Sequence record: NC_020079.1
Reading direction: 5' to 3' (one strand)
Length of the DNA stretch: 64,000 bases
From: Escherichia phage phAPEC8
This document shows, one piece after another, positions 29,029-45,031 of the stretch (position 1 is the stretch's first letter; each line of letters starts with the position of its first letter). Made by a program: the position numbers and the translations under genes. Below the pieces are notes generated by a model. That model was not told the DNA's origin and searched no databases. It saw only the letters and a program-made list of their open reading frames with translations.

Positions 29029-29044
29029 TCTCCCCTCCGTTATA

Positions 29045-29728: not shown

Positions 29729-29729
29729 T

Positions 29730-30251
29730 TTAACTCCCCTTTGGTAGATAGAAACCATGCACTTTATCTCGATAAACAAGACGCATATCACGTTCCCAGT
29801 GTGTCCTTATATTCCGTTTCTTGAAGTATAGAGCACCTTTAGTAACATCTAAAACAGACCGCAATTCAGGAAAATGTTTCTCTAAATAAAGTAAACGCTC
29901 CGCTATTGCTTTTGCTTCCTGCCACTTATCTTTCTCTGTTACGTTAAAAGTTTTCGCATATGAGAATTGCCCTTTCTGGAACAAGACTCCTCTGACTGTG
30001 TTAGGGAAGTAGGTATCATTTCTTCTGTTGATTACCACATTCCCAACGGCATTCATTCCTTTTTTACCCAGACCGCGACCTTCTGCGTAAATTGCACAAG
30101 CTAATAGAATTTTATCATTATATTGCTTTGTACATTTGTGAACTACTTTAGCGGTTTTTACGTTTGCAGCTTCGGCTTTCGCCACAACAGGTGTAAATGT
30201 AAAAGCAGTTAAGGATAGTAACGCAACTGTTACAAAGTTTTTTATCAGCAA
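29730..30251 (-). CDS. SleB/CwlJ-like cell-wall hydrolase with signal peptide
   Basis: 173 aa; signal peptide LLSLTAFTFTPVVAKA; CAIYAEGRG motif; TTG start behind RBS AAGGAGG. Confidence 0.55.
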   Translation of the reverse strand: MLIKNFVTVALLSLTAFTFTPVVAKAEAANVKTAKVVHKCTKQYNDKILLACAIYAEGRGLGKKGMNAVGNVVINRRNDTYFPNTVRGVLFQKGQFSYAKTFNVTEKDKWQEAKAIAERLLYLEKHFPELRSVLDVTKGALYFKKRNIRTHWERDMRLVYRDKVHGFYLPKGS

Positions 30252-30283
30252 ATTTTGCCTCCTTTTTAAGTTAACGAACTTCT

Positions 30284-30332
30284 AGTATAACACGATAGAG
30301 GCTTTATTGCAAGAGGGGGATTTCTCCCCCTC
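30284..30332 (-). promoter_or_regulatory. Hairpin plus sigma70-like promoter (TTGCAA-N17-TATACT) upstream of the hydrolase gene
   Basis: GAGGGGGA-TTTC-TCCCCCTC perfect stem right after terD stop, followed by -35/-10 hexamers. Confidence 0.4.
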
Positions 30333-30350
30333 AAAATCATTTGTTAATTA

Positions 30351-30953
30351 TTATGGACATTCATACCATTCTTTTTTACCACCAAAGGCCATCACCACAT
30401 CGCAAATATCCAGACCAGCTTTACCTACACCATATGCTTTCAGCTTCCATTCCCCATCTTCACGAACCAGCGAAGCCACGTGGCAGATTGTGTTGCCAGC
30501 TACTTCAGGAGCCAGGAAGTCAAAATCCAGAATTTCCACATTGCGCTCGGAGTCGAAGATTTTAAGCATACCTTCAGAAGCATGACCAAAACGTTTCAGA
30601 CCTGTATCATCATCAATGGTCAGAACAAAGGCAATCTCTTGTGCATCAGGAGAGATTTTAGCCAGAGTAATATCAATCTGCTCCATGCTGCCAGTTCCAT
30701 CACGAACATCGTCACCAGCGAAGGTAGAACGTTCAGGATCAAACTTGTTAGCATAGCAAACCAGATGACGTGCAGACAGCATTTCAGGATTGCCAGCGGC
30801 ATTATGACGACAAACCAGTGCACTTACATCCAGATCCAGTTTAGAATCAGATTTCCAAGAGAATTCCAGGCGCAGTTCTTTCAGAGCCGGAGCAACTTTC
30901 TTCAGGGAAATTTTTTCGCTAGAACCTTTTTTCAGGGAAATTTTATCAGTCAT
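30351..30953 (-). CDS. terD: TerD-family stress protein
   Basis: 200 aa; block-wise match to E. coli TerD: ISLKKG..ISLKK, DLDVSALVC, GDDVRDGTGS, FVLTIDD, GEWKLKAYGVG. Confidence 0.8.
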   Translation of the reverse strand: MTDKISLKKGSSEKISLKKVAPALKELRLEFSWKSDSKLDLDVSALVCRHNAAGNPEMLSARHLVCYANKFDPERSTFAGDDVRDGTGSMEQIDITLAKISPDAQEIAFVLTIDDDTGLKRFGHASEGMLKIFDSERNVEILDFDFLAPEVAGNTICHVASLVREDGEWKLKAYGVGKAGLDICDVVMAFGGKKEWYECP

Positions 30954-30968
30954 CTTTTGTCTCCTCTA

Positions 30969-31238
30969 TTATTTAAGTGTAATACCAGTTACAGTCAATT
31001 CTACTTCCAAAAGCTTAGATGTGTTTTGGATTGATACTAATTGTGCATGATGGTTTAGTTCTACAGCAGAATAATCATTTTCCCCATCATCTACTTTTAA
31101 ATAAACAATGATTTCACTAAGGTCTAAACCATTTTCGTCAAATGCATTTTCATAGACGAAAGTATCTCCTACATCCAAATCTTTAATGGTAAGGCATCGT
31201 TTATTTACTTTTTGCTCATCAATTTCGAAGTTTAACAC
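30969..31238 (-). CDS. Small protein, paralog B of a duplicated pair
   Basis: 89 aa; shares DLDVG(D/A)TF(V/M)Y...Y(E/D)...GLD and C-terminal T(G/N)ITLK with ORF 32260-32604. Confidence 0.4.
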   Translation of the reverse strand: MLNFEIDEQKVNKRCLTIKDLDVGDTFVYENAFDENGLDLSEIIVYLKVDDGENDYSAVELNHHAQLVSIQNTSKLLEVELTVTGITLK

Positions 31239-31467
31239 TTCTTCCTCCTAATGTTATCTCCGGTTTGTATATACGAAGAATTATAGCATTTTCATTTTCT
31301 TTGTCAACCCATTCTTCATAATCGGGCCATACATGAATCTCTACTCTACTTACAATATCTTCCATCCGCACAATCCCAATGAAATACTCTTTGAGACTGC
31401 GCATAATGAAAGCTTCTCTCTCGCGCCAATAATTTTCTACGACTTGAGAGGCAAGCTCGTCGATCAT
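31219..31467 (-). CDS. Hypothetical protein
   Basis: 82 aa ORF, coupled. Confidence 0.3.
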   Translation of the reverse strand: MIDELASQVVENYWREREAFIMRSLKEYFIGIVRMEDIVSRVEIHVWPDYEEWVDKENENAIILRIYKPEITLGGRSVKLRN

Positions 31468-32258
31468 TTTTTAGCACCTACTTTAACAACCCACTCTCCG
31501 AACTCTTCAGATAAGAGTTTGTCATAAAGCTCTGAATCTGTCAAGTCTAAATCTTTAATGCCAATGAAACCAACATTATCATAAGCATTTGCCAGTTCTT
31601 TCAGGAAGCCAAACTTCTCATTACCAACGCCAACCATGAACCAATAAATAGGTTTATTCTTATTCTCTTCGATAAGACGACGAACAGCACTAGGATCACC
31701 ATTCTCACCATCCGTTTGGAAGAATACAACACCAGGGGTAACGTCAGCACCTGGTTCAGATACAGCTACAACCTTTTCACGCTCTACAGATACTGTTTCA
31801 GTTTTACCAAGCAGACGATTAAAGAAGCCTTTCTTTGGAGCCTCCTCTTGTACCACTTGTTTAGTGGTAATATATTTGGTAACAGTGCCAAAATACTCGT
31901 CGTAGATATCTGCCATTACAGGGGCGTAGTTTGTTCCACCTCCGATACGAACATTACGCATACATTTACCAACATAATCATCGTAAACGTCTGCTGTTGC
32001 TGGGGTAAGCTCTTGAGAACTCGTATTAAAGGCCCACATATCAATTTGTTCATTATCGTCGAACAGCATACCAAAAGGAAGCAGTTTACCTACAAAATCA
32101 CTCACTACCCCACTAGCATATAGACCATGCATACTACCAGAAATATCTAGAGCACATGCTACACGAAGAACAATCTTACCTTCATTCAGGTTCTTATTCT
32201 TTTTCAGAGAGAAAGCAAGGTTTTCTTGACGTTTTTTCAGGCTGATTTTCTCGGACAT
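31464..32258 (-). CDS. von Willebrand factor A domain protein (TerY-like)
   Basis: 264 aa; MIDAS elements DISGSM (DxSxS), GGGT, FFQTDGENGD; N-terminus MSEKISLKK..SLKK echoes the TerD N-terminus. Confidence 0.7.
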   Translation of the reverse strand: MSEKISLKKRQENLAFSLKKNKNLNEGKIVLRVACALDISGSMHGLYASGVVSDFVGKLLPFGMLFDDNEQIDMWAFNTSSQELTPATADVYDDYVGKCMRNVRIGGGTNYAPVMADIYDEYFGTVTKYITTKQVVQEEAPKKGFFNRLLGKTETVSVEREKVVAVSEPGADVTPGVVFFQTDGENGDPSAVRRLIEENKNKPIYWFMVGVGNEKFGFLKELANAYDNVGFIGIKDLDLTDSELYDKLLSEEFGEWVVKVGAKK

Positions 32259-32259
32259 A

Positions 32260-32604
32260 TTATTTCTCCTTCTTAAGTGTAATGTTGGTAACTTCTAAAT
32301 CTACTTCCACCATCTTTGTATCTGGTGGGATGCAATGAGTATAGCCTCGTTGTGCTAGTGATCCATTAATACAGATCGCACTGTTTGTGGAATTTTTAAT
32401 GAACACCAAGTTACGGTAGGTATCCAACCCTGCGTCTTCATAGGCATCATAATACATGAATGTGGCCCCTACGTCAAGATCTTCGAAAGCAATAGGTAAA
32501 TCCTGACTTTTTTCTTCTTGAATATTGAATCTAAACACGCATACCTCCTCTACCAATTTTGAAGCCCAAATCGTAAGCTTCCTTAGTGATCTTTTGTAAC
32601 TCAC
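32260..32604 (-). CDS. Small protein, paralog A of a duplicated pair (true start probably internal)
   Basis: 114 aa as tracked, overlapping the upstream gene by about 70 nt; paralogous core begins near FRFNIQEE. Confidence 0.4.
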   Translation of the reverse strand: MSYKRSLRKLTIWASKLVEEVCVFRFNIQEEKSQDLPIAFEDLDVGATFMYYDAYEDAGLDTYRNLVFIKNSTNSAICINGSLAQRGYTHCIPPDTKMVEVDLEVTNITLKKEK

Positions 32605-33094
32605 TTATAGGAAGTGTTACAAGAGGATCATCTTCTTCAATTTCCATCTTGTCATCTTCTGTTTCAATGAGAGTATTATGCACTTTGTGATAAGGGTTGT
32701 CAACACGTTTAAACTTATTCTTTTCTGTGCTGAAAAAACAATCTGGATCTTCTTCACCATCACCCCAACCTTGGTTAGGATCTCCGTCAGATTGTTCTGT
32801 AGGGATTTCACCTGTAAAGTACTCTTCCAGCACCATAGCGATACCGTCCCTTGGATTTGAGGAATGCATCAAATCACAAACCTTACTCCAATCCATAGCC
32901 CATTCAAATCGTTCACGAACACCATTTTCATCCTCCTTTCCAGAGAAAACACAACCATAACTATCATAGTTGCCATACATCTCTTCAATAACAACACCGT
33001 CCTTCAAAAGAAAGAGATAACAAGGTGATCCGTCGAAAGAAGTAGAAAGGGCAGCTTTGCCCGATTCTTTGCACAAAAAGCTAAAACAACCCAT
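32531..33094 (-). CDS. Hypothetical acidic protein
   Basis: 187 aa ORF. Confidence 0.35.
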   Translation of the reverse strand: MGCFSFLCKESGKAALSTSFDGSPCYLFLLKDGVVIEEMYGNYDSYGCVFSGKEDENGVRERFEWAMDWSKVCDLMHSSNPRDGIAMVLEEYFTGEIPTEQSDGDPNQGWGDGEEDPDCFFSTEKNKFKRVDNPYHKVHNTLIETEDDKMEIEEDDPLVTLPISELQKITKEAYDLGFKIGRGGMRV

Positions 33095-33492
33095 TACAAA
33101 CCCTCCTTCAGATTATCAAGAGCTACAGTGGTTTCACAAAATTCTCCATAAGCTTTATGATGTTCCAGAAAAGCTTCGGGTCCACCCCAGTCATTATCTT
33201 GTGTATTCCAGCCATCAATAAAAGCATCTTCAATGATTGTGATCAGTTCCTGTCGAGTCAACGTAATGGTATCAGGTTTCTGCGTAGTTTCCACACGGAA
33301 CCCTGGTTCTTCATAAAAACCTTTAGTTACAATGGATTCTAACTCTTCTGCATCACAGAGGAAGTAGCCACAAAGATAACACCCACCGTCATCATCTTTC
33401 ATTACTTCATAAACTTCACCACTTGCTAACTTGATGAAAAGAGTAGGGTCTGTTACTGTAAGTTTTAAAAGAATACCTGTTGGATTATACAT
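33094..33492 (-). CDS. Hypothetical protein
   Basis: 132 aa ORF; start-overlaps the upstream stop. Confidence 0.35.
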   Translation of the reverse strand: MYNPTGILLKLTVTDPTLFIKLASGEVYEVMKDDDGGCYLCGYFLCDAEELESIVTKGFYEEPGFRVETTQKPDTITLTRQELITIIEDAFIDGWNTQDNDWGGPEAFLEHHKAYGEFCETTVALDNLKEGL

Positions 33493-33658
33493 CTTCTTCC
33501 TCCTCTAAGATATGGAACCCGTAATTACAATAATCCTGAAAGGTTTCGTGTGCAAGATCTTCTATATCTTCTTGAGACATATCATCTTCAATTTCGATAT
33601 CTACAACCTCATTGCATCCACACCAAGCCGTTTCAATATTCACTCGTAATATTTTCAT
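33485..33658 (-). CDS. Small acidic protein (57 aa, not in ORF track)
   Basis: ATG overlaps upstream TAA (TAATG) and its stop overlaps the next ATG; MKILRVNIETAWCGCNEVVDIEIEDD... Confidence 0.3.
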   Translation of the reverse strand: MKILRVNIETAWCGCNEVVDIEIEDDMSQEDIEDLAHETFQDYCNYGFHILEEEEDV

Positions 33659-33858
33659 TACTCCTCCTCCTCCTCATTGAAGTCAATATCTGCAAGGAGT
33701 TCGAATTTACGGAAGTTACGACAACCTTCATAAATATAACAATCACGACAAACTGCTAGAACACTTGGGGGATATATGCCTCCCATCGGTGCGAATCGTT
33801 TTTCGTCATCATAACGGACACCAATGTCTTCATCAATTATATAGATACGGATTCTCAT
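33658..33858 (-). CDS. Small Cys-containing protein
   Basis: 66 aa; CRDCYIYEGC; acidic C-terminus; coupled to telA stop. Confidence 0.35.
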   Translation of the reverse strand: MRIRIYIIDEDIGVRYDDEKRFAPMGGIYPPSVLAVCRDCYIYEGCRNFRKFELLADIDFNEEEEE

Positions 33859-34967
33859 TTACCAAGCCCTCGTTTCACAGCAGCTACCATCCCGTCTTCC
33901 AGAGATTGAACTTCATTAATATAATCAACACGAGCAGCACGGGCTTCCGTATTGATGCGGTTAGTTTCTTCCAACATCTTAACCAAGTTTTCCTGATCGT
34001 GACGCAGAGTTTCAATATCCAACACTTGACGGTTAGCCAGTGCTGCTGCTTCGATCTGATTCTGTGTGGCAAGATCGCTACCCAGTTTAATTGCCAGGTT
34101 AAATTCATCAAGAACGTTATTCTGCGTCTCTGCTGCTTTCATTTGACGTAAGCTCTCGATATACATTGAGAAGTTAGCAGAGTAAGCAGGAATAACATTA
34201 TTTACTATGTTACGCGCAGATCGCATTAAGCTTGCAGAAACTTTTTGCATACCTTGTACACGCGGTCCCATTTGGACACACAGTAGGCGCAATGCTTTTA
34301 AATCTGCAATACGAATCTCCAGAAGATCCAAAGTATCTCGGATCACTTGTCGCTGTTCTACTGCATCTTCTGGAAGAGCAGCCAAAGCTTGTTCTTCTTT
34401 TTCATAGGTTGCTGTTAGAAGCTGCATATCTCGGTTCAAACTTGCAGCATATTGTCCAATAGCTTGATGTAGCTTTTCAAGATATACCAAGGAATCTTCT
34501 TCTTTGCGAATATCCATTTGAAGGTTCTTTACCAACTCTTCAATACGGTTATTAACATTATCAAACTCCCCAAACAGATCTTCTTTCATACCCATAACTT
34601 TTTTAATGAGTTTAGTAATACCCTTGCTTTGTTTAATAGAGTTTGGATCAAGTTGTTTTGCCTGTTTAATCAAAGCTGTGAGTCGTTCACTCATCTGATC
34701 GCCTTGATTACTACGTTGATGTTTTAATACCTCGGCATTCAAGGAACGCAAGGTTGTTCCTGCCTCTGCCCCAATCTCTTCAATCTCTTGTCGGGTCATA
34801 GAAGGCAAAACTGGAACTTCTTGCGGTGCCGCTGGTGCATAAACAGGACTGGCATCTAACACGCTTGGAGCGAATACAGATTTACTTGCATCGGTTGTTG
34901 CAGCAAATACGCTCATTTCAGGCTTCTTCTGACCACCAGTAGCTGCTTTTAAAAATGGACTTGTCAT
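33855..34967 (-). CDS. telA: TelA/KlaA-like toxic-anion-resistance family protein
   Basis: 370 aa, largely helical/coiled-coil, size and composition of the TelA family; sits in a Ter gene neighbourhood. Confidence 0.6.
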   Translation of the reverse strand: MTSPFLKAATGGQKKPEMSVFAATTDASKSVFAPSVLDASPVYAPAAPQEVPVLPSMTRQEIEEIGAEAGTTLRSLNAEVLKHQRSNQGDQMSERLTALIKQAKQLDPNSIKQSKGITKLIKKVMGMKEDLFGEFDNVNNRIEELVKNLQMDIRKEEDSLVYLEKLHQAIGQYAASLNRDMQLLTATYEKEEQALAALPEDAVEQRQVIRDTLDLLEIRIADLKALRLLCVQMGPRVQGMQKVSASLMRSARNIVNNVIPAYSANFSMYIESLRQMKAAETQNNVLDEFNLAIKLGSDLATQNQIEAAALANRQVLDIETLRHDQENLVKMLEETNRINTEARAARVDYINEVQSLEDGMVAAVKRGLGK

Positions 34968-35554
34968 TCTTCATTCTCCTCTTCTGCATCTCTTATATAT
35001 GGTGAAACACCGTACTCTTTAGCTACTTTAACCCAATCGTCCCATTTATACAACCATAATTTTCCTTCGGTCCCTTCTTTATCTGATTTCAACCACATAT
35101 TAGGTTGCTTACCTGGGTACATGCGATTAGGTTTACGATTATAACCTCTAACACATCTTGTCGCAAACCCATCTACCAGAACAAGAACATATTTATATTC
35201 GTGGTTCAACGGCTCTTTGGAAGTGGCTTTAGGATTAGCCCCTAATTCTGCTGCCAGTTTTTGCCAATGAGCACCGTGCCTACTAAACTTACCCATACAA
35301 CCATCAATAGCATGAGCAATTTCGTGCTTCATTGTGTCCACGATCATATCTCTTGTGGAGTTCTTATGCAAGTGCCAATTTACAACAACAATTTTATCTC
35401 GGTAGTTGCACCAACCGAAAGAGTTATTCACTTTGTTTCTAACACAAGCTTTATATCCTGCTTCACGTAACATGTTGTAGTAAACAGGAAAATCTTCTTT
35501 TATTTCCTGCATCACTTCCCACCACAAGAGTTGCAAGTCTCTCTCGGTATGCAT
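34964..35554 (-). CDS. SprT-like zinc metallopeptidase
   Basis: 196 aa; HEIAHAI (HExxH) followed by GKFSRHGAHW. Confidence 0.5.
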   Translation of the reverse strand: MHTERDLQLLWWEVMQEIKEDFPVYYNMLREAGYKACVRNKVNNSFGWCNYRDKIVVVNWHLHKNSTRDMIVDTMKHEIAHAIDGCMGKFSRHGAHWQKLAAELGANPKATSKEPLNHEYKYVLVLVDGFATRCVRGYNRKPNRMYPGKQPNMWLKSDKEGTEGKLWLYKWDDWVKVAKEYGVSPYIRDAEEENEE

Positions 35555-35557
35555 AAC

Positions 35558-36151
35558 TTACACCTTAAAAGCGAAATGCGTGGTCGTGGCTTCAAAATCA
35601 GGGCCAGATAAACTTGCACTGAAATCTGAAATATTTGTAATTAAAAAGCTTTTATGCATACCTAACACAGCCACGCTTTCAATATCTTCTACTAACATTT
35701 CAATCATGTTAGAAACATGGCTGAACGTATAGTTTTGTTTTTTGATGGTGTAGAAAGAAAGACTCCCACCTGCTGTATAAGATACCTCTTCAAAATCTTT
35801 AATCGTATATTGTGTACCATCAGTAAAGAAAATGGTAGCTTTATTAGTAGCACGTTTCTTGTTTTTTGGTCCTTTTTTACGTTTACTGCGAGTAGGCAAA
35901 CCGTTTGGGAACACCGTAGCTACAAATTCTTCAGGGGAAACCTCCTTACCGAAATCATAATCGTAAGAAACAGCGTCTATACACTCGTCGTCTTCATTTT
36001 TAAAATAATGAAAATAGGGCCAATTTGAGAGATTATCGAGCATCTTATGCGCATCCACAACAGAGAACGTATCCCTCAAAGCACGTGTGATTTGCAAAGC
36101 ATTAGGCAAACTTTTAACACCTGTAATGGAAGTACGAATAGAAATTGTCAT
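35558..36151 (-). CDS. Hypothetical protein
   Basis: 197 aa ORF. Confidence 0.35.
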   Translation of the reverse strand: MTISIRTSITGVKSLPNALQITRALRDTFSVVDAHKMLDNLSNWPYFHYFKNEDDECIDAVSYDYDFGKEVSPEEFVATVFPNGLPTRSKRKKGPKNKKRATNKATIFFTDGTQYTIKDFEEVSYTAGGSLSFYTIKKQNYTFSHVSNMIEMLVEDIESVAVLGMHKSFLITNISDFSASLSGPDFEATTTHFAFKV

Positions 36152-36165
36152 TGTTTTTCTCCTTA

Positions 36166-36603
36166 TTAACGTCGCTTGCTACGAGATGAACTCTTTTTAC
36201 TTAAAGGGCTATTGTAAGATTTACGAGTTGTATAGCTACTATTTGTTTTAAAAGTTTGTCTCGGCTTTTCATAAGTTTTTATCTCTTGTTTAGGCTTACC
36301 ATAAAAATTAGTTTTCGGTTTAGGTGTATTATAATGCTTATTAATAATCGTTCTGTTATCGTTATAATCCCCACTGCTACGATTACTACCACCACTCATC
36401 ATATGCCCTAACAACATACCTGTAGCAAACTCACCAACACCGCTACTACTAGAACCGCCACCATTGTTGATAATAGTTGTATCTCCGTCAGATCCTTGTT
36501 GAGCGTATTGTTGAGGAGGTTGTTGGTATTGTGCAGGATTTGTTTCATCCTCGCAAGCTGTTAAAAAGATACAACCAATTAAAATCAGGGCTAGTTTTTT
36601 CAT
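36166..36603 (-). CDS. Lipoprotein with Gly/Ser-rich region
   Basis: Start at ATG behind GAGGAAAG; signal MKKLALILIGCIFLTAC (lipobox LTAC); Q/G/S-rich linker. Confidence 0.5.
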   Translation of the reverse strand: MKKLALILIGCIFLTACEDETNPAQYQQPPQQYAQQGSDGDTTIINNGGGSSSSGVGEFATGMLLGHMMSGGSNRSSGDYNDNRTIINKHYNTPKPKTNFYGKPKQEIKTYEKPRQTFKTNSSYTTRKSYNSPLSKKSSSRSKRR

Positions 36604-36790
36604 ATTTGCTTTCCTCATTTTGACTATTAATACATCTGTGTTTGAAATCTCCAGAGAAGCAATAAAGTTGCTCTCCATCTCGGTATAAACTCACTTTACT
36701 GCCGTTGATTACGCTTGTCAATACAAAAATTACAACAAACAACCCTATTGCAAAACAAATATTTTCAAACACAACCAACAAGTATTTCAT
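36545..36790 (-). CDS. Small membrane protein
   Basis: 81 aa; hydrophobic N-terminus LLVVFENICFAIGLFVVIFVL. Confidence 0.3.
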   Translation of the reverse strand: MKYLLVVFENICFAIGLFVVIFVLTSVINGSKVSLYRDGEQLYCFSGDFKHRCINSQNEESKYEKTSPDFNWLYLFNSLRG

Positions 36791-37137
36791 TTTAAAAATA
36801 CCTCATCATCAGTCTCATTATCCCAGAAGAACAAATCCCAACCATTCGGATCATTCCATTTGGCTGCTGGAGAAGTCCATATTTGTTCGATATCAATATT
36901 CAAAACTTCACCGTTTCGTTTTGAAACAGCTTTAGTTAATTCCCAACGAGATACAGGCTCTACTTCCCCTGAACCACTCCCACAACAAGCTACCACGTTA
37001 GGAGGCAAATTAATTGGATCTTTGGTCACGATCATAACGCTTACCCCAGGGTAAACTTTTGAAAGATAATCTAAAACGTAATCCACATCACCAGATAAAT
37101 CCCAAACAAGTTCTTGAATTTCATCAAAATTATTCAT
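36787..37137 (-). CDS. Hypothetical protein
   Basis: 116 aa ORF. Confidence 0.35.
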   Translation of the reverse strand: MNNFDEIQELVWDLSGDVDYVLDYLSKVYPGVSVMIVTKDPINLPPNVVACCGSGSGEVEPVSRWELTKAVSKRNGEVLNIDIEQIWTSPAAKWNDPNGWDLFFWDNETDDEVFLK

Positions 37138-37179
37138 AAGTCTCTCCTATAAAATAGCCTCCCGAAGGAGGCTCATCTA

Positions 37180-38154
37180 TTAAACAGCAGCTTCTTCTTT
37201 TTCAGGGAAGATAAAGCTTGCAATAACACCAAGAGCTAATGTGCCTAGAACAATCATCAGACTTACGTTAGGGGAAATATCATGCGGGAGGAATGACCAC
37301 TTGGCATGAAGTGTTTCACCGAACGGGTGATACATAAGTTTAGCACCGACAAATACCAGAACCACAGCAACAGCTTTCTCTAAGTGAACCAGATATTTCA
37401 CAGCCACACTTAACACAAAGAAAAGTGCACGTAAACCAAGAACAGCCATCAGCATTGCAGAATAAACTAGCAGAGGTTCTTGTGTCACACCGATCACAGC
37501 CGGAACTGAATCAAAAGAGAAGACAATATCTGTAAGCTCAATAACAAACACACAAAGAAGAGCAGGAGTTGCATATTTAATACCATTCTTAATGGTGATG
37601 AACTTTTCACCATCTAGTGCATTGTGCACAGGCAGAACTTTACCTACTAAACGAACAGCCCAATGCTTAGAGTAATCAATATCCTCTTCTTCGTCACCAC
37701 CTTTGATGATAGCCACGGCAGACCAAGCTACAATCAAACCGAACAACACTTGGACCGACCAATGAAGGTTAAACAAAGCGGTCCCTGCTGCAACAAAAAT
37801 ACCTCGGAAGACAATGGCTCCTGCAATCCCCCAAAGTAAAATCTTATGTTGGAGATGTGTGCTCTTAATTCCAAAGCTTGCAAAAATTGCCATGAACACC
37901 ATCAAGTTATCTACAGAAAGACTCTTTTCCAACACATAGCCACTTAGGAAAAGCGCGGCAAACTCTTTACCATGTTCTACCCAAATGAATGCGTAATATC
38001 CTAAAGCTAAAGCAATCCAAAAAACAGACCAAAGCAAAGCAGATTTAATTCCAATTTCTTTATTCTCTTTATGACCAAAGAAATCGATACCAATAGACAA
38101 TGCTAAAATACCAACCAAAACAACTACATCAATAATGGGGAAACCAAGTTGCAT
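37180..38154 (-). CDS. terC: TerC-family integral membrane protein
   Basis: 324 aa; multiple TM helices; EKSLSVDN motif characteristic of TerC. Confidence 0.75.
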   Translation of the reverse strand: MQLGFPIIDVVVLVGILALSIGIDFFGHKENKEIGIKSALLWSVFWIALALGYYAFIWVEHGKEFAALFLSGYVLEKSLSVDNLMVFMAIFASFGIKSTHLQHKILLWGIAGAIVFRGIFVAAGTALFNLHWSVQVLFGLIVAWSAVAIIKGGDEEEDIDYSKHWAVRLVGKVLPVHNALDGEKFITIKNGIKYATPALLCVFVIELTDIVFSFDSVPAVIGVTQEPLLVYSAMLMAVLGLRALFFVLSVAVKYLVHLEKAVAVVLVFVGAKLMYHPFGETLHAKWSFLPHDISPNVSLMIVLGTLALGVIASFIFPEKEEAAV

Positions 38155-38173
38155 TATTTTCTCCTTTCTCTTT

Positions 38174-38232
38174 GCGGGGAACCACTCCCCGCCTCATGTG
38201 ATACATCTTACTCTATTCTAAAACTTTGTCAA
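38174..38232 (-). promoter_or_regulatory. Early-type promoter plus 5' hairpin cassette driving terC
   Basis: - strand reads TTGACA-N16-TAAGAT-gtatcacat-GGCGGGGA-gtggt-TCCCCGC-aaagagaaaGGAGaaaataATG; same architecture as the 60-64 kb cassettes. Confidence 0.55.
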
Positions 38233-38235
38233 CAC

Positions 38236-38457
38236 TTATTTTGAAGAACTTGAGGAAAAGATCCCACGTAGTACAGCCATGATAAATGCCACACACACCA
38301 CAGTCCAGAAGGTGACAGGAACAGTGATATCTGTGTGACCCATCATTTCAACAACGTAGTTATAAGCCAGCAGCAGAAGCCATGCTGGAATCATACTAAT
38401 CAGAAAAGCAATAACAAACACAATAATCACTGCAAGAATACCTGCTAAAACGCCCAT
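38236..38457 (-). CDS. Small two-helix membrane protein
   Basis: 73 aa, strongly hydrophobic. Confidence 0.4.
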   Translation of the reverse strand: MGVLAGILAVIIVFVIAFLISMIPAWLLLLAYNYVVEMMGHTDITVPVTFWTVVCVAFIMAVLRGIFSSSSSK

Positions 38458-38470
38458 AATATTTCTCCTC

Positions 38471-38944
38471 TTAAAGTTTATAAATAGTCACATCGTGACC
38501 TGTTTTTACTAAAGTTTCTTCAATCATCACTTGGATGATAGCCCAATTACCTCCAGCATGTCCAGCGCCAATCATAGGTAAGCCGATCTTACATTTTTGG
38601 TCACGGAGAAGCAAATCGTTAGCCATAGCTATTAGTGCATCGTAAAGTGCATCATAGTCCAACTGACGACCTTTAGCATTGTATCCGTAACGGTATTGCC
38701 CGTATAGATTATATACCAAAGGGTCTGATTGTTCGTCTGGCACTCCTAAACTAAAACAACCTAGTTTACTTTGATCACCAGCCATTGTGTCTAAGTCTGC
38801 TGCATATGCGTAAGGAAATGCTCGTTTGATTTGTGGGGCAATACCTGCCCCCATATTACACATACAGTTGCAACAATGAGCAATAACAGTTACTTCACCT
38901 GCTTTAGCGGCATCAATAAGATTACCTGTTTTCATTTTAAGCAT
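38471..38944 (-). CDS. Macro domain protein (ADP-ribose binding/processing)
   Basis: Start at ATG behind AAGGAG; VIAHCCNCMCNMGAGIAPQIKRAFP and IGLPMIGAGHAGGNW parallel the two macro-domain glycine-rich loops. Confidence 0.55.
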   Translation of the reverse strand: MLKMKTGNLIDAAKAGEVTVIAHCCNCMCNMGAGIAPQIKRAFPYAYAADLDTMAGDQSKLGCFSLGVPDEQSDPLVYNLYGQYRYGYNAKGRQLDYDALYDALIAMANDLLLRDQKCKIGLPMIGAGHAGGNWAIIQVMIEETLVKTGHDVTIYKL

Positions 38945-38957
38945 TTTTAGCTCCTTA

Positions 38958-39785
38958 TTACAGAATGTGTTGTTTTGTGTAACGATCCAAGAATTCAAAG
39001 TTTTCAGCATACTTTGAAATTCGGTTGTAACCTTCTCCCAAGCATCCAAAGAAAAGTTGCTCTACATAGTAATGTGGCAATTGGCTAAGAATGATTTTGA
39101 AGTCTTCATGATTTTGGCCCATAAGATACTTAATAGGACGAACAAGACACTGTGCATCACGTTCTTCATTAATCATTTTAACAAACGCTTCCGGTGTATT
39201 AATGTAGTTAAAATTCAGTTTAGCTTCGGTATCTGCTTGATTACCTTCATATTTTGCAAAATACAGGAAGTAAACATCATTTTTAACTTGATTTTCATTA
39301 AGGATCTCAATCAGTTTGTCTTCATGCGTTCCAGTGATATTTACATCATCAATGAATACAAGCTTCTTATCACCCCAGAATTCTTTGTTACAGTAGAATG
39401 TATCCCCATCAATAAGTTTCTTACGACTAGCTTTATCCAAGAAACCATAATCGTTGATATAGCTAACTTTACGATGAATAATGTCCAGTTCTGCTGAACG
39501 ACCTTGATCATATTGTGATTGCAACATATTAAAGTAATTAATAAAATGATCTGTCATCATTGTTGCAGCATTATGCACATGGTTGTAAGGAGAAGGAATG
39601 ATAACAAATTGTTCCCCAATATGTTTCATTGCCACTTGAGCAAAAAACTGAAGTGCCAATTCTTTACCCATACGACGCGCGGCTTGGTTACTACCAAATT
39701 TCAATTTTGAATAATCTTGGATATCAAAAGTAGCAGTTTCCAGGTCATCAAATTTATTTGCAAAAATTTGAGTTTGATTACGCAT
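38958..39785 (-). CDS. Phosphoribosyltransferase (type I PRTase fold) domain protein
   Basis: 275 aa; KLVFIDDVNITGTHEDK matches the PRPP-binding motif (hydrophobic-DD-x-x-TG-T). Confidence 0.55.
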   Translation of the reverse strand: MRNQTQIFANKFDDLETATFDIQDYSKLKFGSNQAARRMGKELALQFFAQVAMKHIGEQFVIIPSPYNHVHNAATMMTDHFINYFNMLQSQYDQGRSAELDIIHRKVSYINDYGFLDKASRKKLIDGDTFYCNKEFWGDKKLVFIDDVNITGTHEDKLIEILNENQVKNDVYFLYFAKYEGNQADTEAKLNFNYINTPEAFVKMINEERDAQCLVRPIKYLMGQNHEDFKIILSQLPHYYVEQLFFGCLGEGYNRISKYAENFEFLDRYTKQHIL

Positions 39786-40434
39786 TTACAATTTCTCCTC
39801 TTTTAAGTTTCTCTAGTAAGTCGTTAGGGTTCTTAATATGACAGAAGTTAAATCCTAAGTCAACACATTTTCCATCATATTCTTCACTATCGCCTACGTG
39901 CAATACTTCGTGCCCTAACAGAGGGATCGGAGAATACGTGAGCGTGCGAGCAAAGAATCGCGGATCTGGTTTACAAAGTAAAGCTTCATCCGAGAAATGG
40001 GTGAACTCAAAACAATTCCAACTATCAAACTTACAAGCACGACGCAGGATATCCCCTGATATAAAGTTGGTATTGCTCTTAATACTCAAATCATAACGTC
40101 CCGAAAGATACAGCAAGTACATCGGCAGATCCACGGCTACGTGTGGTGGAAACTTAAGGAACCACTGTTCACACTCGAAACGAAGCTTTGCAGACTTCCA
40201 AGGTGTTATCCCAAGTTCAGAACCAAGTCTTTCCCAGGCGTATGCTGCACACTCGGCTTTGCCTTGAAGTGCTGCATTATCCAGTTCCTTTTTGATCTTC
40301 TTATAAGCTGCTCTTGCTTCCACTTCCGTAATATCTCCATATTTTGCGATAGTCCAGGCTCGCATGTCTGCGTAATTGGAGTTTGCTGTGATCAGTGTGT
40401 TCCATACATCAAAAGAGATATGTTTAATAGTCAT
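39778..40434 (-). CDS. HAD-superfamily hydrolase/phosphatase-like protein
   Basis: 218 aa; N-terminal ISFDVWNTLI (nucleophile Asp motif I variant) and HVGDSEEYD (motif IV-like). Confidence 0.45.
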   Translation of the reverse strand: MTIKHISFDVWNTLITANSNYADMRAWTIAKYGDITEVEARAAYKKIKKELDNAALQGKAECAAYAWERLGSELGITPWKSAKLRFECEQWFLKFPPHVAVDLPMYLLYLSGRYDLSIKSNTNFISGDILRRACKFDSWNCFEFTHFSDEALLCKPDPRFFARTLTYSPIPLLGHEVLHVGDSEEYDGKCVDLGFNFCHIKNPNDLLEKLKRGEIVNA

Positions 40435-40435
40435 A

Positions 40436-41041
40436 TTAAGCCCACCATGCGTCTAAGTTAAGATTACTGTCCACTACCACTTGTTCTATGTGGTAGCCTT
40501 TTATCTGTATCCCACTGTTCAAGAGCATATCATACGCTTCATTGAAACGCAACTTATCTTCTGCGGAATATAAGCGAGCATTATAAAATCGGTAATCAAT
40601 TTCTTCAGCATTAGAAGAAATACGGAAGAAGTTTGTTTCTACTTCGGGATCACTTGCTGAAGTCTTAATGTGAACTTCTCCGTAATTTTCTTTACTTAGA
40701 TCCATGAAAAGAACACAGGCAACATGTTTAAACATTCGTTCCAGTTTGTAACGAACAACATTGAAACCTGCATTCTCAAGTTTTTCTACACACTGCAACA
40801 TTAAAGTAGTGTCGAGATCGCTTTGATACTTTGTTAACATACGATCACGTTGAGACTTTGTATCCCGATGTAAATCAATTGTTGTGCATTTGGCACCAAT
40901 AATCTTAGCTGCTTTCATCAACTCTTCAGAACTAACGTTAGATAAAGTAAGATGAAAGTGGGCTTTCCACACTTTTTTAGCAGGGACACCAAAAGATTTA
41001 TCCCCACTATTCGGCATGTTGACTACTACACTATGTTGCAT
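40436..41041 (-). CDS. Hypothetical protein co-operonic with HAD/PRTase/macro genes
   Basis: 201 aa; no confident motif. Confidence 0.35.
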   Translation of the reverse strand: MQHSVVVNMPNSGDKSFGVPAKKVWKAHFHLTLSNVSSEELMKAAKIIGAKCTTIDLHRDTKSQRDRMLTKYQSDLDTTLMLQCVEKLENAGFNVVRYKLERMFKHVACVLFMDLSKENYGEVHIKTSASDPEVETNFFRISSNAEEIDYRFYNARLYSAEDKLRFNEAYDMLLNSGIQIKGYHIEQVVVDSNLNLDAWWA

Positions 41042-41056
41042 TACTTATCTCCTCAC

Positions 41057-41248
41057 TTAAAATGGAAGTCTTTGAAGTTCATCTCCTCCGATATCAAGTA
41101 ATTTAGCAACATCTCGATCAGAAAGCAACTCTTTTCTTTGTAAAATATCCACAAGGGTTGCAAGAATGTCCTTAACGTCCCGATCACTGTTCTTCAAAAG
41201 TTCTCCTGCCGTCCCTACTCTATCTCCTACAGCAAAATATGTAACCAT
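41057..41248 (-). CDS. Hypothetical protein
   Basis: 63 aa ORF. Confidence 0.3.
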   Translation of the reverse strand: MVTYFAVGDRVGTAGELLKNSDRDVKDILATLVDILQRKELLSDRDVAKLLDIGGDELQRLPF

Positions 41249-41260
41249 GAAACCTCCTAG

Positions 41261-41731
41261 TTAATCTGATTGCCAACCACTTGCCGTTTTGGTCCATAAT
41301 CTTTGATTATCTGACCCTCTGAAAGGTTTTGTAGTTGGATTGTTTATTTCATACTTTCCGTCTACAATAATGTCAACAAGATTTTTAATATACAAAGGCA
41401 CTTCCTCAAAAGTATACCCTGTATACACCATTATATCTTTGCTTGACCCATAAACGTCTCTAACCTTTTCTATAAGGTTTTTAACATTGTAAATATTCTG
41501 TGGATCTAATGGCTCTCCTCCTAAAATTGTTAAACCTTTTACAAACGGTCTTGACAAATCTTTTAAAACTTGCTCTACATTTTCGTGAGTAAACGGTTTC
41601 CCATAAGAATAAGACCAGGCTTTTTGGTTAAAACAGCCACGACAACCGTGGCTACAACCACTAACCCAGAGGGAGCACCTAACTCCCTCACCATTAATAA
41701 GATCTACAGGTTCGTATCCTGCAAAATTCAA
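41261..41731 (-). CDS. nrdG: Anaerobic ribonucleotide reductase activating protein
   Basis: 156 aa; radical-SAM Cys cluster CSLWVSGCSHGCRGCFN; start-overlaps nrdD stop. Confidence 0.75.
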   Translation of the reverse strand: MNFAGYEPVDLINGEGVRCSLWVSGCSHGCRGCFNQKAWSYSYGKPFTHENVEQVLKDLSRPFVKGLTILGGEPLDPQNIYNVKNLIEKVRDVYGSSKDIMVYTGYTFEEVPLYIKNLVDIIVDGKYEINNPTTKPFRGSDNQRLWTKTASGWQSD

Positions 41732-43542
41732 AAATGTTTCTCCCTTTGCAAAACTTCCTGCATTTTACCTTTGTTGTAAGGCCGTGAATTAGGGGCAGAA
41801 AGATACCCTGATACACGTCTAACTACAGAAATAGTTTCTTCTTCATGGTTGCCACAATCAGGACACTCAAACCCTTTAGCCGTTGCCTTAAATTCTCCAT
41901 GAAAACCACACTTAAAGCATTGATCCACGGGCTGATTAATACCAAAATAGTGAATATGTTCATAAGCGTAGTCTACTAAAGTCTCCAAAGCTTCTAAGTT
42001 ATTCTTTAAGTTTGGTGTTTCGACATAACTTATGTTACCACCATTACTAATCTGTGCAAAACCTGCTTCATAATCCCATTTTTCAAAAGGATTTGTTACC
42101 AACCACACAGGTTGATGAAAAGAGTTAGTAAGATAATCTCTTTCTACCAAACCTGGGTATTTTTCATTTAAAGCTGTTGCAAACTTATAGCACAAGGATT
42201 CTGCTGGAGTTCCATAGAGACTAAACGCCAAATTAGATCGTTCTTTAAACACAGCACACACATCTTTCATATGTTGCAGAATGTTTTTACCAAGTTCCTT
42301 TTTATCTTTTTCTTCTGGATAAAGGATTTCCAAAGCTTCGGCAAGACCTACATAACCAATACTAATAGAAGCATAACCACCTTCAAACAAAACACCAATT
42401 TCATCGTTGGCATTTAAACGCGCTAAAGCCCCTTCCATGAAAAGAATAGGGTTTTCAGATGCTTTGGTATGTCTGATACGGTTTACACGTAGCATGTGAG
42501 CATCGTAGGCTATCTCCATATGTTTATTAAGAAGATCGGTGAAAGATTCTCCTTTACTTCTCGCTTCCGCAGCGATCAGAGGTAAGTTGATAGAAACTAC
42601 TCCAAGGTTGAATCGTCCATCGTATTTTTCTCCTTGTTCTGTGGCATAGTACGACAAAAAGGAACGACAACCCATACTCGTAACAGTGCCATCTGCTGAT
42701 CCCGTAACTTCTTTGTTCAAAGGAACAGAAATAAAATCTGGATAAATACGATCAGCACAACATGCCAAAGCTTGTTGCTTAAGGTCATAGTTAGGATCAC
42801 TAGGTTTCATGTTAACACCTTCTTGTAAAAAGAAAATAACTTTAGGGAATACAGGCGTTACATGATCTTTGCCTAGACCATTACTATGCACTTTAAGATA
42901 GTTAGCTGTGATCATTCTGCCAAAAACAGAGGTATCCAGACCCATACTGATTGTAATAAAAGGAGATTGTCCATTAACACTCATTAAAGTATTAACCTGA
43001 TACAAGAGAGTTTGCATAGCATCATATACATCTTGTTCGGTCATTTCTAGGGCTTCTTTCCTTGCATAACAACCGTAGCGACGTTTGGTTATCTCCATGT
43101 TTTTAAGGAAACTAGCTTCAACATAAGGACTAAGACCTTTATCAATGTGCGCACACGTCTGACCTCCATACTGACTGGAGGCAACAGCTTGGATGATTTG
43201 AGTTAGCACTGTGGTAGCTACTCCAATAGATTTTGGTTTTTCTATCTGTGCGGCACCGATTTTAAAACCATTTTCTAACATATCTTGATAATTAACAAGA
43301 CAACAGTTTGTAAGAGGAGAGAGCAGATAATCCAAGTCGTGAATATGTCCAAAACCTTCTGTATGCCACTCTGACAAGTTTTTTGGCAGTATCTGTGTCA
43401 TTGCCATATGTTTGCTTAAAATCCCCGCCAAGAGATCCCTATGCGTGTTAACGAGGTGGGAAGGTTTGTTTGCATTCTCTCTAGTGTATGTTTCTGAAGT
43501 ACGATCTAAAAAAGAAAAAACATCTTGGTACAAATCTTTCAT
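41728..43542 (-). CDS. nrdD: Anaerobic ribonucleoside-triphosphate reductase (class III)
   Basis: 604 aa; C-terminal zinc ribbon CFKCGFHGEF...CPDCG and glycyl-radical-type motif RRVSGYL. Confidence 0.85.
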   Translation of the reverse strand: MKDLYQDVFSFLDRTSETYTRENANKPSHLVNTHRDLLAGILSKHMAMTQILPKNLSEWHTEGFGHIHDLDYLLSPLTNCCLVNYQDMLENGFKIGAAQIEKPKSIGVATTVLTQIIQAVASSQYGGQTCAHIDKGLSPYVEASFLKNMEITKRRYGCYARKEALEMTEQDVYDAMQTLLYQVNTLMSVNGQSPFITISMGLDTSVFGRMITANYLKVHSNGLGKDHVTPVFPKVIFFLQEGVNMKPSDPNYDLKQQALACCADRIYPDFISVPLNKEVTGSADGTVTSMGCRSFLSYYATEQGEKYDGRFNLGVVSINLPLIAAEARSKGESFTDLLNKHMEIAYDAHMLRVNRIRHTKASENPILFMEGALARLNANDEIGVLFEGGYASISIGYVGLAEALEILYPEEKDKKELGKNILQHMKDVCAVFKERSNLAFSLYGTPAESLCYKFATALNEKYPGLVERDYLTNSFHQPVWLVTNPFEKWDYEAGFAQISNGGNISYVETPNLKNNLEALETLVDYAYEHIHYFGINQPVDQCFKCGFHGEFKATAKGFECPDCGNHEEETISVVRRVSGYLSAPNSRPYNKGKMQEVLQREKHF

Positions 43543-43613
43543 TATTAATCCTTATTTTGTGAGTAGAACTATTATTCTACCTCTTCCAACCGAAAAAAGC
43601 TTTGAGGAAAATC

Positions 43614-43635
43614 AAAAAAGGCGCAAAGTGCGCCT
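43614..43635 (-). terminator. Rho-independent terminator (- strand)
   Basis: + strand AGGCGCA-AAG-TGCGCCT preceded by an A-run, giving a U-tract on the - strand transcript. Confidence 0.5.
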
Positions 43636-43642
43636 TTAAGTT

Positions 43643-45031
43643 TTATCGTTTGGAGAGGAATTGTCTTCCCATGATCTTACCGTTCTTTACAGCGGTCCCA
43701 TCGTGTCCATTATAATCCCAAGTTCCATCAATGTTACGCAAGAAGCTATCACGAACAGTGTAGGCTTTACCGTTCTCTACTTTACTTTCTTCAACAATGA
43801 TTGCCATAACAAGCTTATTTTCAATTTCGGTAGTAACCGATTCTTTAATACCCTCTGTAACTTCACGATCATATTGGATATAAACTCGCTCCTCGGTTAC
43901 TTGCACATCAACCACATTTTTAAATGTGTATGTCTGTTGTGTAGTGTAGAGGACACGAACGACACTCTTCTTACCTACCGGAGGCTTCTTACGAGGCTTA
44001 CGGTAACGTGGTTTAGGGTTGTTAGTTGGAAGCCAACCAACAATATCCCGATCATATCCAACATGACCCCAAGTGAAATGCGTAGCCGATCCACTATCCG
44101 TAGTTCCGTCACGAAAGAGAACTTCTACGTGACCACCACAAGGGCGGTGTCCACCATTATTATAGTTGTATTTTGCCGTGCGCGGGAGAATGAAGTATTC
44201 TTTAATCGCCCACTCTTCCAGATTGTCGATATTCCAAGTGAATACTGTTCCCTTAGCAACATCTGTTTGACCATTGTTGAAGCGAACCTGCACGAAATCT
44301 TCTGAAGGCATAACACCTGTGTTCGGAAGATATTCAAATGCAGTATCTTCCGCTACAAACTGTTCTTCCTCTTGCTCCTCAATACTTGGCACAGGCGCAG
44401 CTTCATCGTATTTCGCAGCAAACATATTTTTAAATTCTTGAGCCGTGACTTCTACAAGGCCGCGATCACCAGTAGCAGCAGAGTGTGGGCGTGGTAAATC
44501 CCCAACTTCAATATGCATTGCATCTAAGCCTGCTTGACGATCAAAGAAGATAACCTTGCGGAATTGTTTATCTTTATATTGTGGCAGTTCATACATACTT
44601 GGGTCGATTGTCTTCAAACGTTCAGCATCTTCTGGCTTCCAGAAGCTTTTACCTGTTGCAAATCTAAAGTCTACCAGTAGTTTAACAACATCTCCTAATG
44701 ATAACCTATCTGCATCTACGAAAACGTCTTCGATTCCCAATAACCCTGATTTCTTAAGAATCAGATCTAACATGTAACCTCCTGTGGTTTGTTCTGCGTC
44801 TGGATAACGATCAACACTGGTGCTGGTTACACCGTTTATTTCACCAGTGGAGGCATTGTAGGAAATATATGGGAAGGTCATATCGTTCATTGCAAAATCA
44901 CCTGAACAGGTTGGATCATCTTCTCCCTCCCAGCCATACACCTTCACAATACCTTCACACAATTTGTCATACACACCAGCGCGACGTGCTGCTTCAGCAA
45001 CTTCCTGTTTACGGGCAAATTTATTAATCAT
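43643..45031 (-). CDS. Large hypothetical protein
   Basis: Start set at ATG (MINKFARK) behind AGGAGG; about 462 aa. Confidence 0.4.
   Translation of the reverse strand: MINKFARKQEVAEAARRAGVYDKLCEGIVKVYGWEGEDDPTCSGDFAMNDMTFPYISYNASTGEINGVTSTSVDRYPDAEQTTGGYMLDLILKKSGLLGIEDVFVDADRLSLGDVVKLLVDFRFATGKSFWKPEDAERLKTIDPSMYELPQYKDKQFRKVIFFDRQAGLDAMHIEVGDLPRPHSAATGDRGLVEVTAQEFKNMFAAKYDEAAPVPSIEEQEEEQFVAEDTAFEYLPNTGVMPSEDFVQVRFNNGQTDVAKGTVFTWNIDNLEEWAIKEYFILPRTAKYNYNNGGHRPCGGHVEVLFRDGTTDSGSATHFTWGHVGYDRDIVGWLPTNNPKPRYRKPRKKPPVGKKSVVRVLYTTQQTYTFKNVVDVQVTEERVYIQYDREVTEGIKESVTTEIENKLVMAIIVEESKVENGKAYTVRDSFLRNIDGTWDYNGHDGTAVKNGKIMGRQFLSKR

Follow-up and report, generated by a model that had tools for sequence, protein, structure and literature searches.

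Tellurite resistance (Ter) systems that carry a phosphoribosyltransferase (PRTase) and a HAD-type hydrolase are known from the jumbo phage Acinetobacter vB_AbaM_ME3 and from 'certain other related smaller tailed phages' (Iyer et al. 2021, PMC7824862). The study of Iyer, Anantharaman, Krishnan, Burroughs and Aravind builds on that of Anantharaman et al. (2012), and superinfection exclusion and some xenobiotic resistance were proposed as functions of phage Ter systems (PMC7824862). The linked enzymes have been summarised as a module for the synthesis of a 'nucleoside-like metabolite' (PMC7824862, PMC8115787). Four tellurite resistance genes were reported in Phapecoctavirus ZCKP1 (2018, PMC6141743), and the ter determinants of bacteria and plasmids have historically been tied to resistance against phages and colicins (PMC6141743). 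The TerC family protein Alx of E. coli is a Mn2+ exporter under riboswitch control (PMC10197570). Here we compare with these systems a locus of Escherichia phage phAPEC8, studied on one strand of a 64,000-nt stretch of record NC_020079.1 (the window), with the focus on the block at positions 37180-41041, which encodes a TerC protein, a macro domain protein, a PRTase, a HAD hydrolase and a protein of 201 amino acid residues.

This block is probably one end of a conserved Ter gene set of the Stephanstirmvirinae that is built in three layers: a two-gene cassette of HAD hydrolase and PRTase_3, a group of Ter membrane proteins, and two passengers, the macro domain protein and the 201-residue protein. 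What was observed is which genes are present and which domains they encode, that HAD and PRTase_3 are strictly paired, that in phages this pair is linked to Ter genes, and that the macro and 201-residue genes are patchily distributed. A sequence-only reading of the block had recognised a Ter-linked PRTase/HAD module. The family assignment (PF15610), the constant HAD partner and the neighbouring phage Ter genes all agree with this and with the published module (PMC7824862, PMC8115787). The novelty of a phage-encoded Ter system with PRTase and HAD did not stand, such systems having been described in 2021 (PMC7824862) and the tellurite genes of ZCKP1 in 2018 (PMC6141743).

The HAD-PRTase_3 cassette and its linkage to Ter genes

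The components on which the argument rests are the following.

39778..40434, minus strand: HAD-IA-type hydrolase (REG-2-like/YjjG models, PDB 2om6), obligate upstream partner of PRTase_3
38958..39785, minus strand: PRTase_3, a ComF-like type I PRTase; PRPP loop intact, helical extension at the C-terminus
37180..38154, minus strand: TerC/Alx-family integral membrane protein (Pfam TerC, TIGR03718), last gene of its unit
33855..34967, minus strand: TelA (Pfam PF05816, E = 3.2e-33; phrog_5890, 'tellurite resistance')
31464..32258, minus strand: vWA-TerF-like protein (PF10138, E = 2.1e-37; tblastn matches to the vWA genes of loci L002-L004)
30351..30953, minus strand: TerD (PF02342, E = 3.2e-28; homologues in 144 phage records)

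The PRTase belongs to Pfam family PF15610 (PRTase_3, 'ComF-like'; E = 1.3e-41). Its phosphoribosyl pyrophosphate (PRPP) loop LVFIDDVNITGTHEDK, made up of a hydrophobic run, two acidic residues and T-G-T, was invariant in 30 sequences, and among 30 homologues sharing 44-79% identity residues D146, D147, I150, T151, G152, T153, H154 and E155 did not vary. The protein shows the PRTase fold, to which it adds an N-terminal YSxLKFGS motif of its own and a C-terminal helical extension of ~90 residues; comparison by sequence with solved structures gave nothing significant. Family match, intact loop and fold together bear out the earlier PRTase call. PF15610 is presumably a Ter-associated PRTase family. 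The HAD protein reached 21.2 bits in Pfam, below the cut-off of 26.4, but was nevertheless rightly called: NCBIfam models for REG-2-like proteins (E = 2.4e-8), YjjG (E = 3.8e-5) and HAD-IA proteins match, as does PDB 2om6 (E = 7.6e-5), and motifs I-IV (FDVWNTL, SNTNF, KPD and GDxxxxD) are conserved in 22 aligned partner proteins.

PRTase_3 loci were drawn from metagenomic contigs, IMG/VR, plasmids and genomes, and were scored by tblastn and iterated hidden Markov models (individual loci carry an L number here). The HAD gene immediately precedes PRTase_3 in each of the 16 distinct viral loci, and likewise in every bacterial or plasmid locus recovered. TerC and vWA-TerF genes, usually accompanied by TerD or TelA, lie at most 10 kb away in 11 of these 16 viral loci, and independent jumbo-phage contigs also show the Ter linkage. 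This constant adjacency and the recurrent proximity of Ter genes in phages mean that HAD and PRTase_3 form an obligate two-gene cassette, strongly linked to Ter in phages. Among GenBank phages TerD was found in 144 records and PRTase_3 in 155; the two groups largely coincide and consist of Stephanstirmvirinae, some Klebsiella phages, and Caulobacter and Brevundimonas jumbo phages.

Bacterial genome contigs were scanned with exact motif patterns, which yielded 12 loci and, the patterns being exact, an undercount of bacterial PRTase_3 genes. Ter genes were near the pair in only one bacterial genome locus, a Haliea metagenome-assembled genome (MAG; L040). The rhizobial plasmid loci hold the HAD-PRTase_3 pair alone, in ordinary metabolic surroundings. 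A tblastn search of plasmids with PRTase_3 returned 17 records, all from Rhizobiaceae or Hymenobacter, and no match on enterobacterial plasmids; a host origin was rejected on this ground, the cassette thus not having been copied from a host ter island.

Two of the loci deserve description in their own right. On a Sinorhizobium garamanticum plasmid (L027, NZ_CP120375) the pair is surrounded by genes encoding a glycosyltransferase, a radical SAM enzyme, an epimerase/dehydratase, an SMR transporter, a GMC oxidoreductase and a UbiA prenyltransferase, a set reminiscent of the PRPP-dependent polyprenyl-phosphoribose and arabinose pathways. A jumbo-phage contig (L002, 13029-14612) carries genes for a PnuC-like transporter of nicotinamide mononucleotide (NMN) and an AAA_28 protein 2-3 kb downstream of PRTase_3, beside a TerC/TerD/vWA cluster.

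The Ter genes of phAPEC8

Profile searches upheld TerC, with E = 3e-40 for PF03741 and E = 2.6e-95, above the curated cut-off, for the TerC/Alx subfamily model TIGR03718 of NCBIfam. The genes for TelA, the vWA-TerF-like protein and TerD follow 2-7 kb onward on the same strand, the whole Ter set being contained within 11 kb. The sequence-only reading had centred its set on TerC, which is indeed present, and had overlooked TelA, an SprT-like protein, the vWA-TerF-like protein and TerD. Since TerD, the vWA-TerF-like protein and TelA are encoded nearby on the strand, the locus represents a full phage Ter system and not TerC alone. Its metabolite module is a compact version only: among the ~30 open reading frames (ORFs) scanned between 25.8 and 45.8 kb, no family match to ATP-grasp, C-C lyase or TerB was found. 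GenBank labels TerD, vWA-TerF, PRTase_3 and Macro mostly as 'hypothetical', 'orotate phosphoribosyltransferase' or 'phosphatase'.

Further features in this part of the window are these.

34964..35554, minus strand: SprT-like metallopeptidase (Pfam SprT-like, E = 4.2e-9), overlapping the TelA start by 4 nt (34964-34967)
32675-32703, minus strand: promoter upstream of the vWA region, 11/12 matches
31280..31307, minus strand: sigma-70 promoter upstream of an 89-aa ORF and TerD (TTGACA, 16 nt, TG-TATAAT; 12/12 matches, extended -10)

The SprT-like gene varies among relatives, being found in L008 and L009 and not detected in L006, L007 and L010. The 29000-33900 region is enriched in promoter-like sites by about twofold, with 25 found where 13.3 +/- 3.6 were expected.

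Gene order and transcription unit

The five ORFs of the block exist as first given, at 37180-38154, 38471-39049, 38958-39785, 39778-40434 and 40436-41041, all on the minus strand. Their description as co-directional was correct as to the single strand; TerC, however, had been placed first and is the last gene, transcribed after the others because all of them lie on the minus strand. The order of transcription is NrdD, NrdG, the 63-aa ORF, the 201-aa ORF, HAD, PRTase, Macro, the 73-aa ORF and TerC, and these nine genes are flanked by two strong terminators (43637-43617 and 37173-37156). The remaining features of the unit are listed in this order.

43617..43637, minus strand: intrinsic terminator, a 9-bp stem with 5 GC pairs, then TTTTGATTTT; annotated in phage ASO2A too
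41728..43542, minus strand: NrdD, the anaerobic ribonucleotide reductase with which the unit begins (Pfam NRDD, E = 2.3e-164)
41261..41731, minus strand: NrdG activase (Pfam Fer4_12, E = 3.3e-42, and Radical_SAM), overlapping NrdD by 4 nt
41057..41248, minus strand: 63-aa ORF (phrog_17780), subfamily-wide, found by tblastn in L006-L010
40436..41041, minus strand: 201-aa protein ('u201') of an alpha+beta family, a lineage-specific insertion here, often NUDIX-fused
38471..38944, minus strand: TARG1/DarG-like macro domain protein (157 aa), a homologue of T4 Tk.4 (AdfM)
38236..38457, minus strand: 73-aa hydrophobic ORF, probably a membrane protein (phrog_16065), beside Macro in L006-L010
38205..38232, minus strand: sigma-70-like promoter for TerC (TTGACA, 16 nt, TAAGAT; 10/12 matches), annotated in ASO2A
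38174..38192, minus strand: 7-bp hairpin in the TerC leader (GCGGGGA-gtggt-TCCCCGC), no U-tract
37156..37173, minus strand: intrinsic terminator after TerC, AGCCTCCTTCGGGAGGCT then ATTTTAT; annotated in ASO2A

The terminator at 43617..43637 ends the preceding unit and is thereby the upstream boundary of the NrdD-to-TerC unit. Of the start/stop overlaps reported earlier, the one between the HAD stop and the PRTase start is real (8 nt), and a 1-nt gap separates the stop of the 201-aa gene from the HAD start. The 92-nt overlap between Macro and PRTase was rejected as an artefact of taking the longest ORF, which begins at a TTG codon; the start of Macro backed by a ribosome-binding site is the ATG at 38944, which has AAGGAG ahead of it and lies 13 nt past the PRTase stop. 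The 73-aa ORF accompanies Macro throughout the subfamily.

TerC is separated from the preceding gene by 81 nt, and this stretch holds its own sigma-70-like promoter and leader hairpin. Both are positionally conserved across three diverged phage lineages: the promoter keeps its place in L006, L007 and L009, and the hairpin stem survives two-sided changes (GCGGAGG/CCTCCGC in L006, GAGGGAG/CTCCCTC in L007). The hairpin may stabilise or regulate the terC mRNA. In ASO2A this element, between the 73-aa ORF and TerC, is annotated as a 'terminator', an assignment that was rejected because it lies downstream of the promoter and lacks a U-tract. A riboswitch ahead of TerC, as in E. coli alx, was also rejected, no Rfam match being found in 33000-44000.

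The block is 99.8% identical to that of Escherichia phage vB_EcoM_ASO2A (Phapecoctavirus). Dozens of further Phapecoctavirus genomes (Stephanstirmvirinae) match it at 94% identity or more, and at least 80% of it is covered in 69 phage records. Some records stand out by their origin. In MG065650 (Campylobacter phage B15) and OP562383 (Acinetobacter phage ABPW7) the block is 96-98% identical at the DNA level to E. coli Phapecoctavirus genomes, and in OR584014 (Pseudomonas phage PsgM04F) the PRTase and TerD share ~79% and ~90% protein identity; the host labels of these three look doubtful. A contig assigned to a 'Proteobacteria bacterium' MAG (L029, JAEZZU010000022.1), in which NrdD to Macro have 99% protein identity to the Phapecoctavirus block, is a phage fragment binned into the MAG.

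Judged from a switch in GC skew and from annotation, the block is set in a long minus-strand run of genes for replication and nucleotide metabolism, including a DNA polymerase, a primase, a Dam-type methylase and four annotated glycosyltransferases. The latter are consecutive minus-strand ORFs at 25881-29028, labelled as glycosyltransferases in the related phage anhysbys. Two of them match glycosyltransferase families in Pfam and one has a weak match, below cut-off, to TAGT (TET-associated glycosyltransferase; E = 1e-3), while a Pfam scan of the ORF at 28465-29028 gave no match at all.

The macro domain protein

The macro domain call of the sequence-only reading holds. The Pfam score is marginal (22.3 bits, cut-off 22), and the protein aligns over its full length with macrodomains of the TARG1/DarG type (PDB 5e3b, E = 1.9e-12; DarG in PADLOC, E = 2.7e-10). 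It shares 36% identity over 124 residues with Tk.4 of phage T4 (E = 1e-20), and the proteins are alike in length (157 and 155 aa) and have NLY-x-Q in common. Tk.4 was recently renamed AdfM, for anti-DarT factor Macrodomain, and its deletion sensitises T4 to DarTG2 (2025 preprint, bioRxiv 10.1101/2025.11.20.689424). Further orphan DarG-like antitoxins of phages have already been published.

The earlier proposal that the macro domain is joined to the PRTase/HAD pathway fared less well. Its family matches 2,978 of 50,697 phage records (~6%), almost all without PRTase_3, and the gene adjoins PRTase_3 only in the Stephanstirmvirinae; in one other locus (L015) it lies 7 kb off. Together with the homology to Tk.4/AdfM, this distribution suggests that Macro is most likely a separate anti-defence passenger, an orphan DarG-like protein of the Tk.4/AdfM type. 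T4 Tk.4 occupies the tk region of that phage, whereas the Macro gene described here is embedded in a Ter and ribonucleotide reductase unit.

The 201-residue protein

The 201-aa protein was called unknown in the sequence-only reading, and indeed no Pfam or NCBIfam family could be assigned. Fold comparison gave no convincing match, its structural relatives being uncharacterised proteins of phages and giant viruses, and a sequence comparison of the family with solved structures returned nothing significant. The family numbers 79 representatives at E <= 1e-3; a narrow alignment recovered 6 loci. Conserved polar residues alternate along most strands, and the motifs HxHIT, KxTxIDL, DRMxTKY, RxKLE, YxExHxK, SxNP, FxNxRxY and DSNxxxDxWWA were recognised. 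An N-terminal NUDIX domain is present on ~40 of 91 relatives (6 of 68 in another set), and one small cellular genome likewise encodes a NUDIX fusion, amid housekeeping genes.

Several relatives have informative neighbours or fusion partners. On a T4-like contig (L024, 7274-9125) the relative is fused to HD_4 and directly follows a NAD kinase gene, with NAMPT and NUDIX genes nearby. Elsewhere a relative stands immediately upstream of a homologue of the anti-CBASS protein Acb1 (L045, 7980-9000) or upstream of an HD_4-like ORF (L044, 7983-9363). The association with Acb1, HD_4 and NAD kinase hints at a role related to nucleotide signals or NAD(P).

Other assignments were tried. The PADLOC 'AbiEi' models PDLC02277 and PDLC02279 match the protein over its full length (E = 5e-13 and 4e-12). 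This lead found no Pfam AbiEi match, no plasmid match and no AbiEii family in 9 genomic contexts, and the predicted structure opens with a beta-alpha-beta unit, not with a winged helix. A 2H phosphoesterase, prompted by the sequences HLTL and HIKTS, was rejected, the bilobed 2H fold with its pair of HxT/S motifs not being found, and a CYTH or triphosphate tunnel enzyme, prompted by alternating charged residues in the strands, was rejected as well.

Phapecoctavirus-like genomes have the 201-aa gene, and phi92-like genomes lack it although they retain all other parts of the block. In one related phage 14 kb separate it from the cassette, and in the Rheinheimera Barba phages it occurs by itself. 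Its inclusion as a pathway member does not agree with this distribution. We conclude only that the 201-aa protein is a nucleotide-related domain and not a conserved partner of the cassette.

Proposed function and alternative explanations

A function for the three layers can be proposed as follows. PRTase_3 would join PRPP to a base-like acceptor, giving a 5'-phosphoribosyl product from which the HAD hydrolase would strip the phosphate to leave a riboside. TerC/Alx, TerD, the vWA-TerF-like protein and TelA would act at the membrane, altering the envelope or the metal handling of the infected cell. Strong host-type promoters ahead of TerC, the vWA region and TerD suggest that the Ter genes are made early by the host RNA polymerase. 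The most likely purpose would be the exclusion of superinfecting phages or of colicins, with the riboside as a ligand or signal for the Ter proteins. Macro would most likely take ADP-ribose off DNA and so defeat DarTG defence.

A more specific proposal, which as a whole we regard as tentative and rather doubtful, combines two claims: that the 201-aa protein represents a new nucleotide-processing or nucleotide-binding family directed against nucleotide-based immunity, and that a riboside made by PRTase_3 and its HAD partner with Trp in place of Asp switches a Ter membrane complex on. The NUDIX fusions, the single HD_4 fusion, the Acb1 neighbour in one phage and the full-length PADLOC 'AbiEi' match point to the first of these.

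A number of observations weigh against the three-layer set as interpreted above. No Ter gene lies within 10 kb of the pair in 5 of 16 viral loci or in any rhizobial locus, so the cassette can work without Ter, at least locally. Among solved proteins the one closest to the PRTase is ComF, which functions in DNA uptake. Classical HAD phosphatases have an Asp at position +2 of motif I as the general acid/base. The HAD motif I reads D-x-W-x-T, with Trp or Tyr conserved at this position in the 22 partners and likewise in PDB 2om6; simple 5'-dephosphorylation is therefore not assured, and substrate or chemistry may be unusual. At the position of the catalytic Lys of DarG and TARG1, Macro has Gln ('YGQY'), so the same chemistry is not guaranteed; the same Gln is found in SCO6735 and BT1257 ('IGQH') and in T4 Tk.4 ('YTQF'). 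The close packing of the 201-aa, HAD and PRTase genes, with a 1-nt gap and an 8-nt overlap, would also fit a pathway that they share in this lineage. The product of Ter-linked PRTase/HAD modules is not known to have been identified, and every biochemical activity and biological role given here is an inference.

The alternative that survives best, which we nevertheless consider unlikely, unites Macro, PRTase_3, HAD and the 201-aa protein in one pathway for an ADP-ribose-related nucleoside metabolite serving Ter, with Macro trimming an ADP-ribosyl or 1''-phosphate intermediate. It would account for the packing of the genes in one terminator-bounded unit with spacers of at most 13 nt and one 8-nt overlap. 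The frequent fusion of the 201-aa family to NUDIX, labelled ADP-ribose pyrophosphatase in some sources, its HD_4 fusion beside NAD kinase, NAMPT and NUDIX genes on the T4-like contig, and the macro gene 7 kb from the pair in the unrelated phage locus L015 are also in line with it. However, neither the macro nor the 201-aa gene adjoins HAD-PRTase_3 outside the Stephanstirmvirinae, and phi92-like phages have HAD, PRTase, Macro and TerC without the 201-aa gene. Moreover, the macro family is found in ~6% of phage records, mostly without PRTase_3, and its T4 member was reported as a stand-alone anti-DarTG2 factor.

It is very unlikely that HAD-PRTase_3 serves nucleotide or DNA metabolism instead, acting with NrdD and NrdG on a modified DNA or tRNA nucleoside or on nucleotide pools, with TerC as an unrelated metal exporter. 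Such a role is suggested by the single unit that the cassette forms with NrdD and NrdG, by the replication setting with its DNA polymerase, primase, Dam-type methylase and four glycosyltransferases, and by the ribonucleotide reductase genes near the cluster in L002. The Ter linkage, however, recurs in distant phages with differing surroundings, and this group of phages is reported to be exceptionally susceptible to restriction-modification (PMC8594841), which argues against a protective DNA hypermodification.

A rebuilding of NAD+ or recycling of ADP-ribose against NAD-depleting defences (Thoeris, DSR, some CBASS), the alternative offered by the sequence-only reading, is highly improbable: a macro domain and a PRPP-type transferase would be plausible parts of it, and the PnuC-like NMN transporter and AAA_28 genes of L002 and the NAMPT and NAD kinase genes neighbouring one 201-aa relative speak for it too, but no family match to Nampt, NAPRTase, Nmnat, a pyrophosphokinase or a PRPP-synthetase-like protein was found among the ~30 ORFs scanned, 44 kb of annotation around the block contain no NAD-salvage gene, a phosphatase removing the 5'-phosphate would oppose NMN/NAD synthesis, and the same cassette occurs on rhizobial plasmids in ordinary settings without a defence context.

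Comparison with known systems

The function of the Ter genes is a question decades old, and to our knowledge nobody has yet identified the predicted 'nucleoside-like metabolite'. The phage set described here is pared down to one PRTase, one HAD hydrolase, TerC, TerD, a vWA protein and TelA, and close relatives infect E. coli K-12, among which is phage PaulScherrer of the BASEL collection. This makes the set accessible to gene deletion, metabolomics and superinfection assays. The main value of the locus thus lies in tractable E. coli phages for an old question about Ter, and in the corrected annotation; the 201-aa family is a separate, small lead. Should a riboside indeed switch the Ter complex on, a small-molecule ligand of the Ter system would be defined, and this in a genetically tractable E. 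coli K-12 phage.

Compared with ComF/ComFC and other type I PRTases, PRTase_3 differs by its YSxLKFGS motif, its C-terminal helices and its constant pairing with HAD. The phage TerC protein passes the curated cut-off set for the Alx subfamily model, and differs from E. coli Alx in its upstream region, where Rfam recognises no yybP-ykoY riboswitch and a ~45-nt leader with a conserved hairpin is found instead. Macro has in common with T4 Tk.4/AdfM a similar length, the NLY-x-Q sequence and the Gln residue. The bacterial and plasmid determinants terZABCDEF (IncHI2 plasmids, E. coli O157) and telA/kilA (RK2) share the TerC, TerD, TerF-type vWA and TelA families with the phage; tblastn found no counterpart of PRTase_3 on enterobacterial plasmids.

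The closest resemblance is to the phage Ter systems of Iyer et al. (2021, PMC7824862), which have the same parts (TerC, TerD, vWA-TerF, TelA, PRTase and HAD) and follow the same logic of a nucleoside-like signal combined with membrane-linked effectors. The set of phAPEC8 differs from these in its single PRTase family (PF15610) and in having no TerB, ATP-grasp or C-C lyase among the scanned ORFs. It further differs in its division over two transcription units with many small ORFs between them, and in the macro and 201-aa genes inserted by the cassette. It is no new kind of system: it is a further member of the described phage Ter systems, with its annotation corrected.

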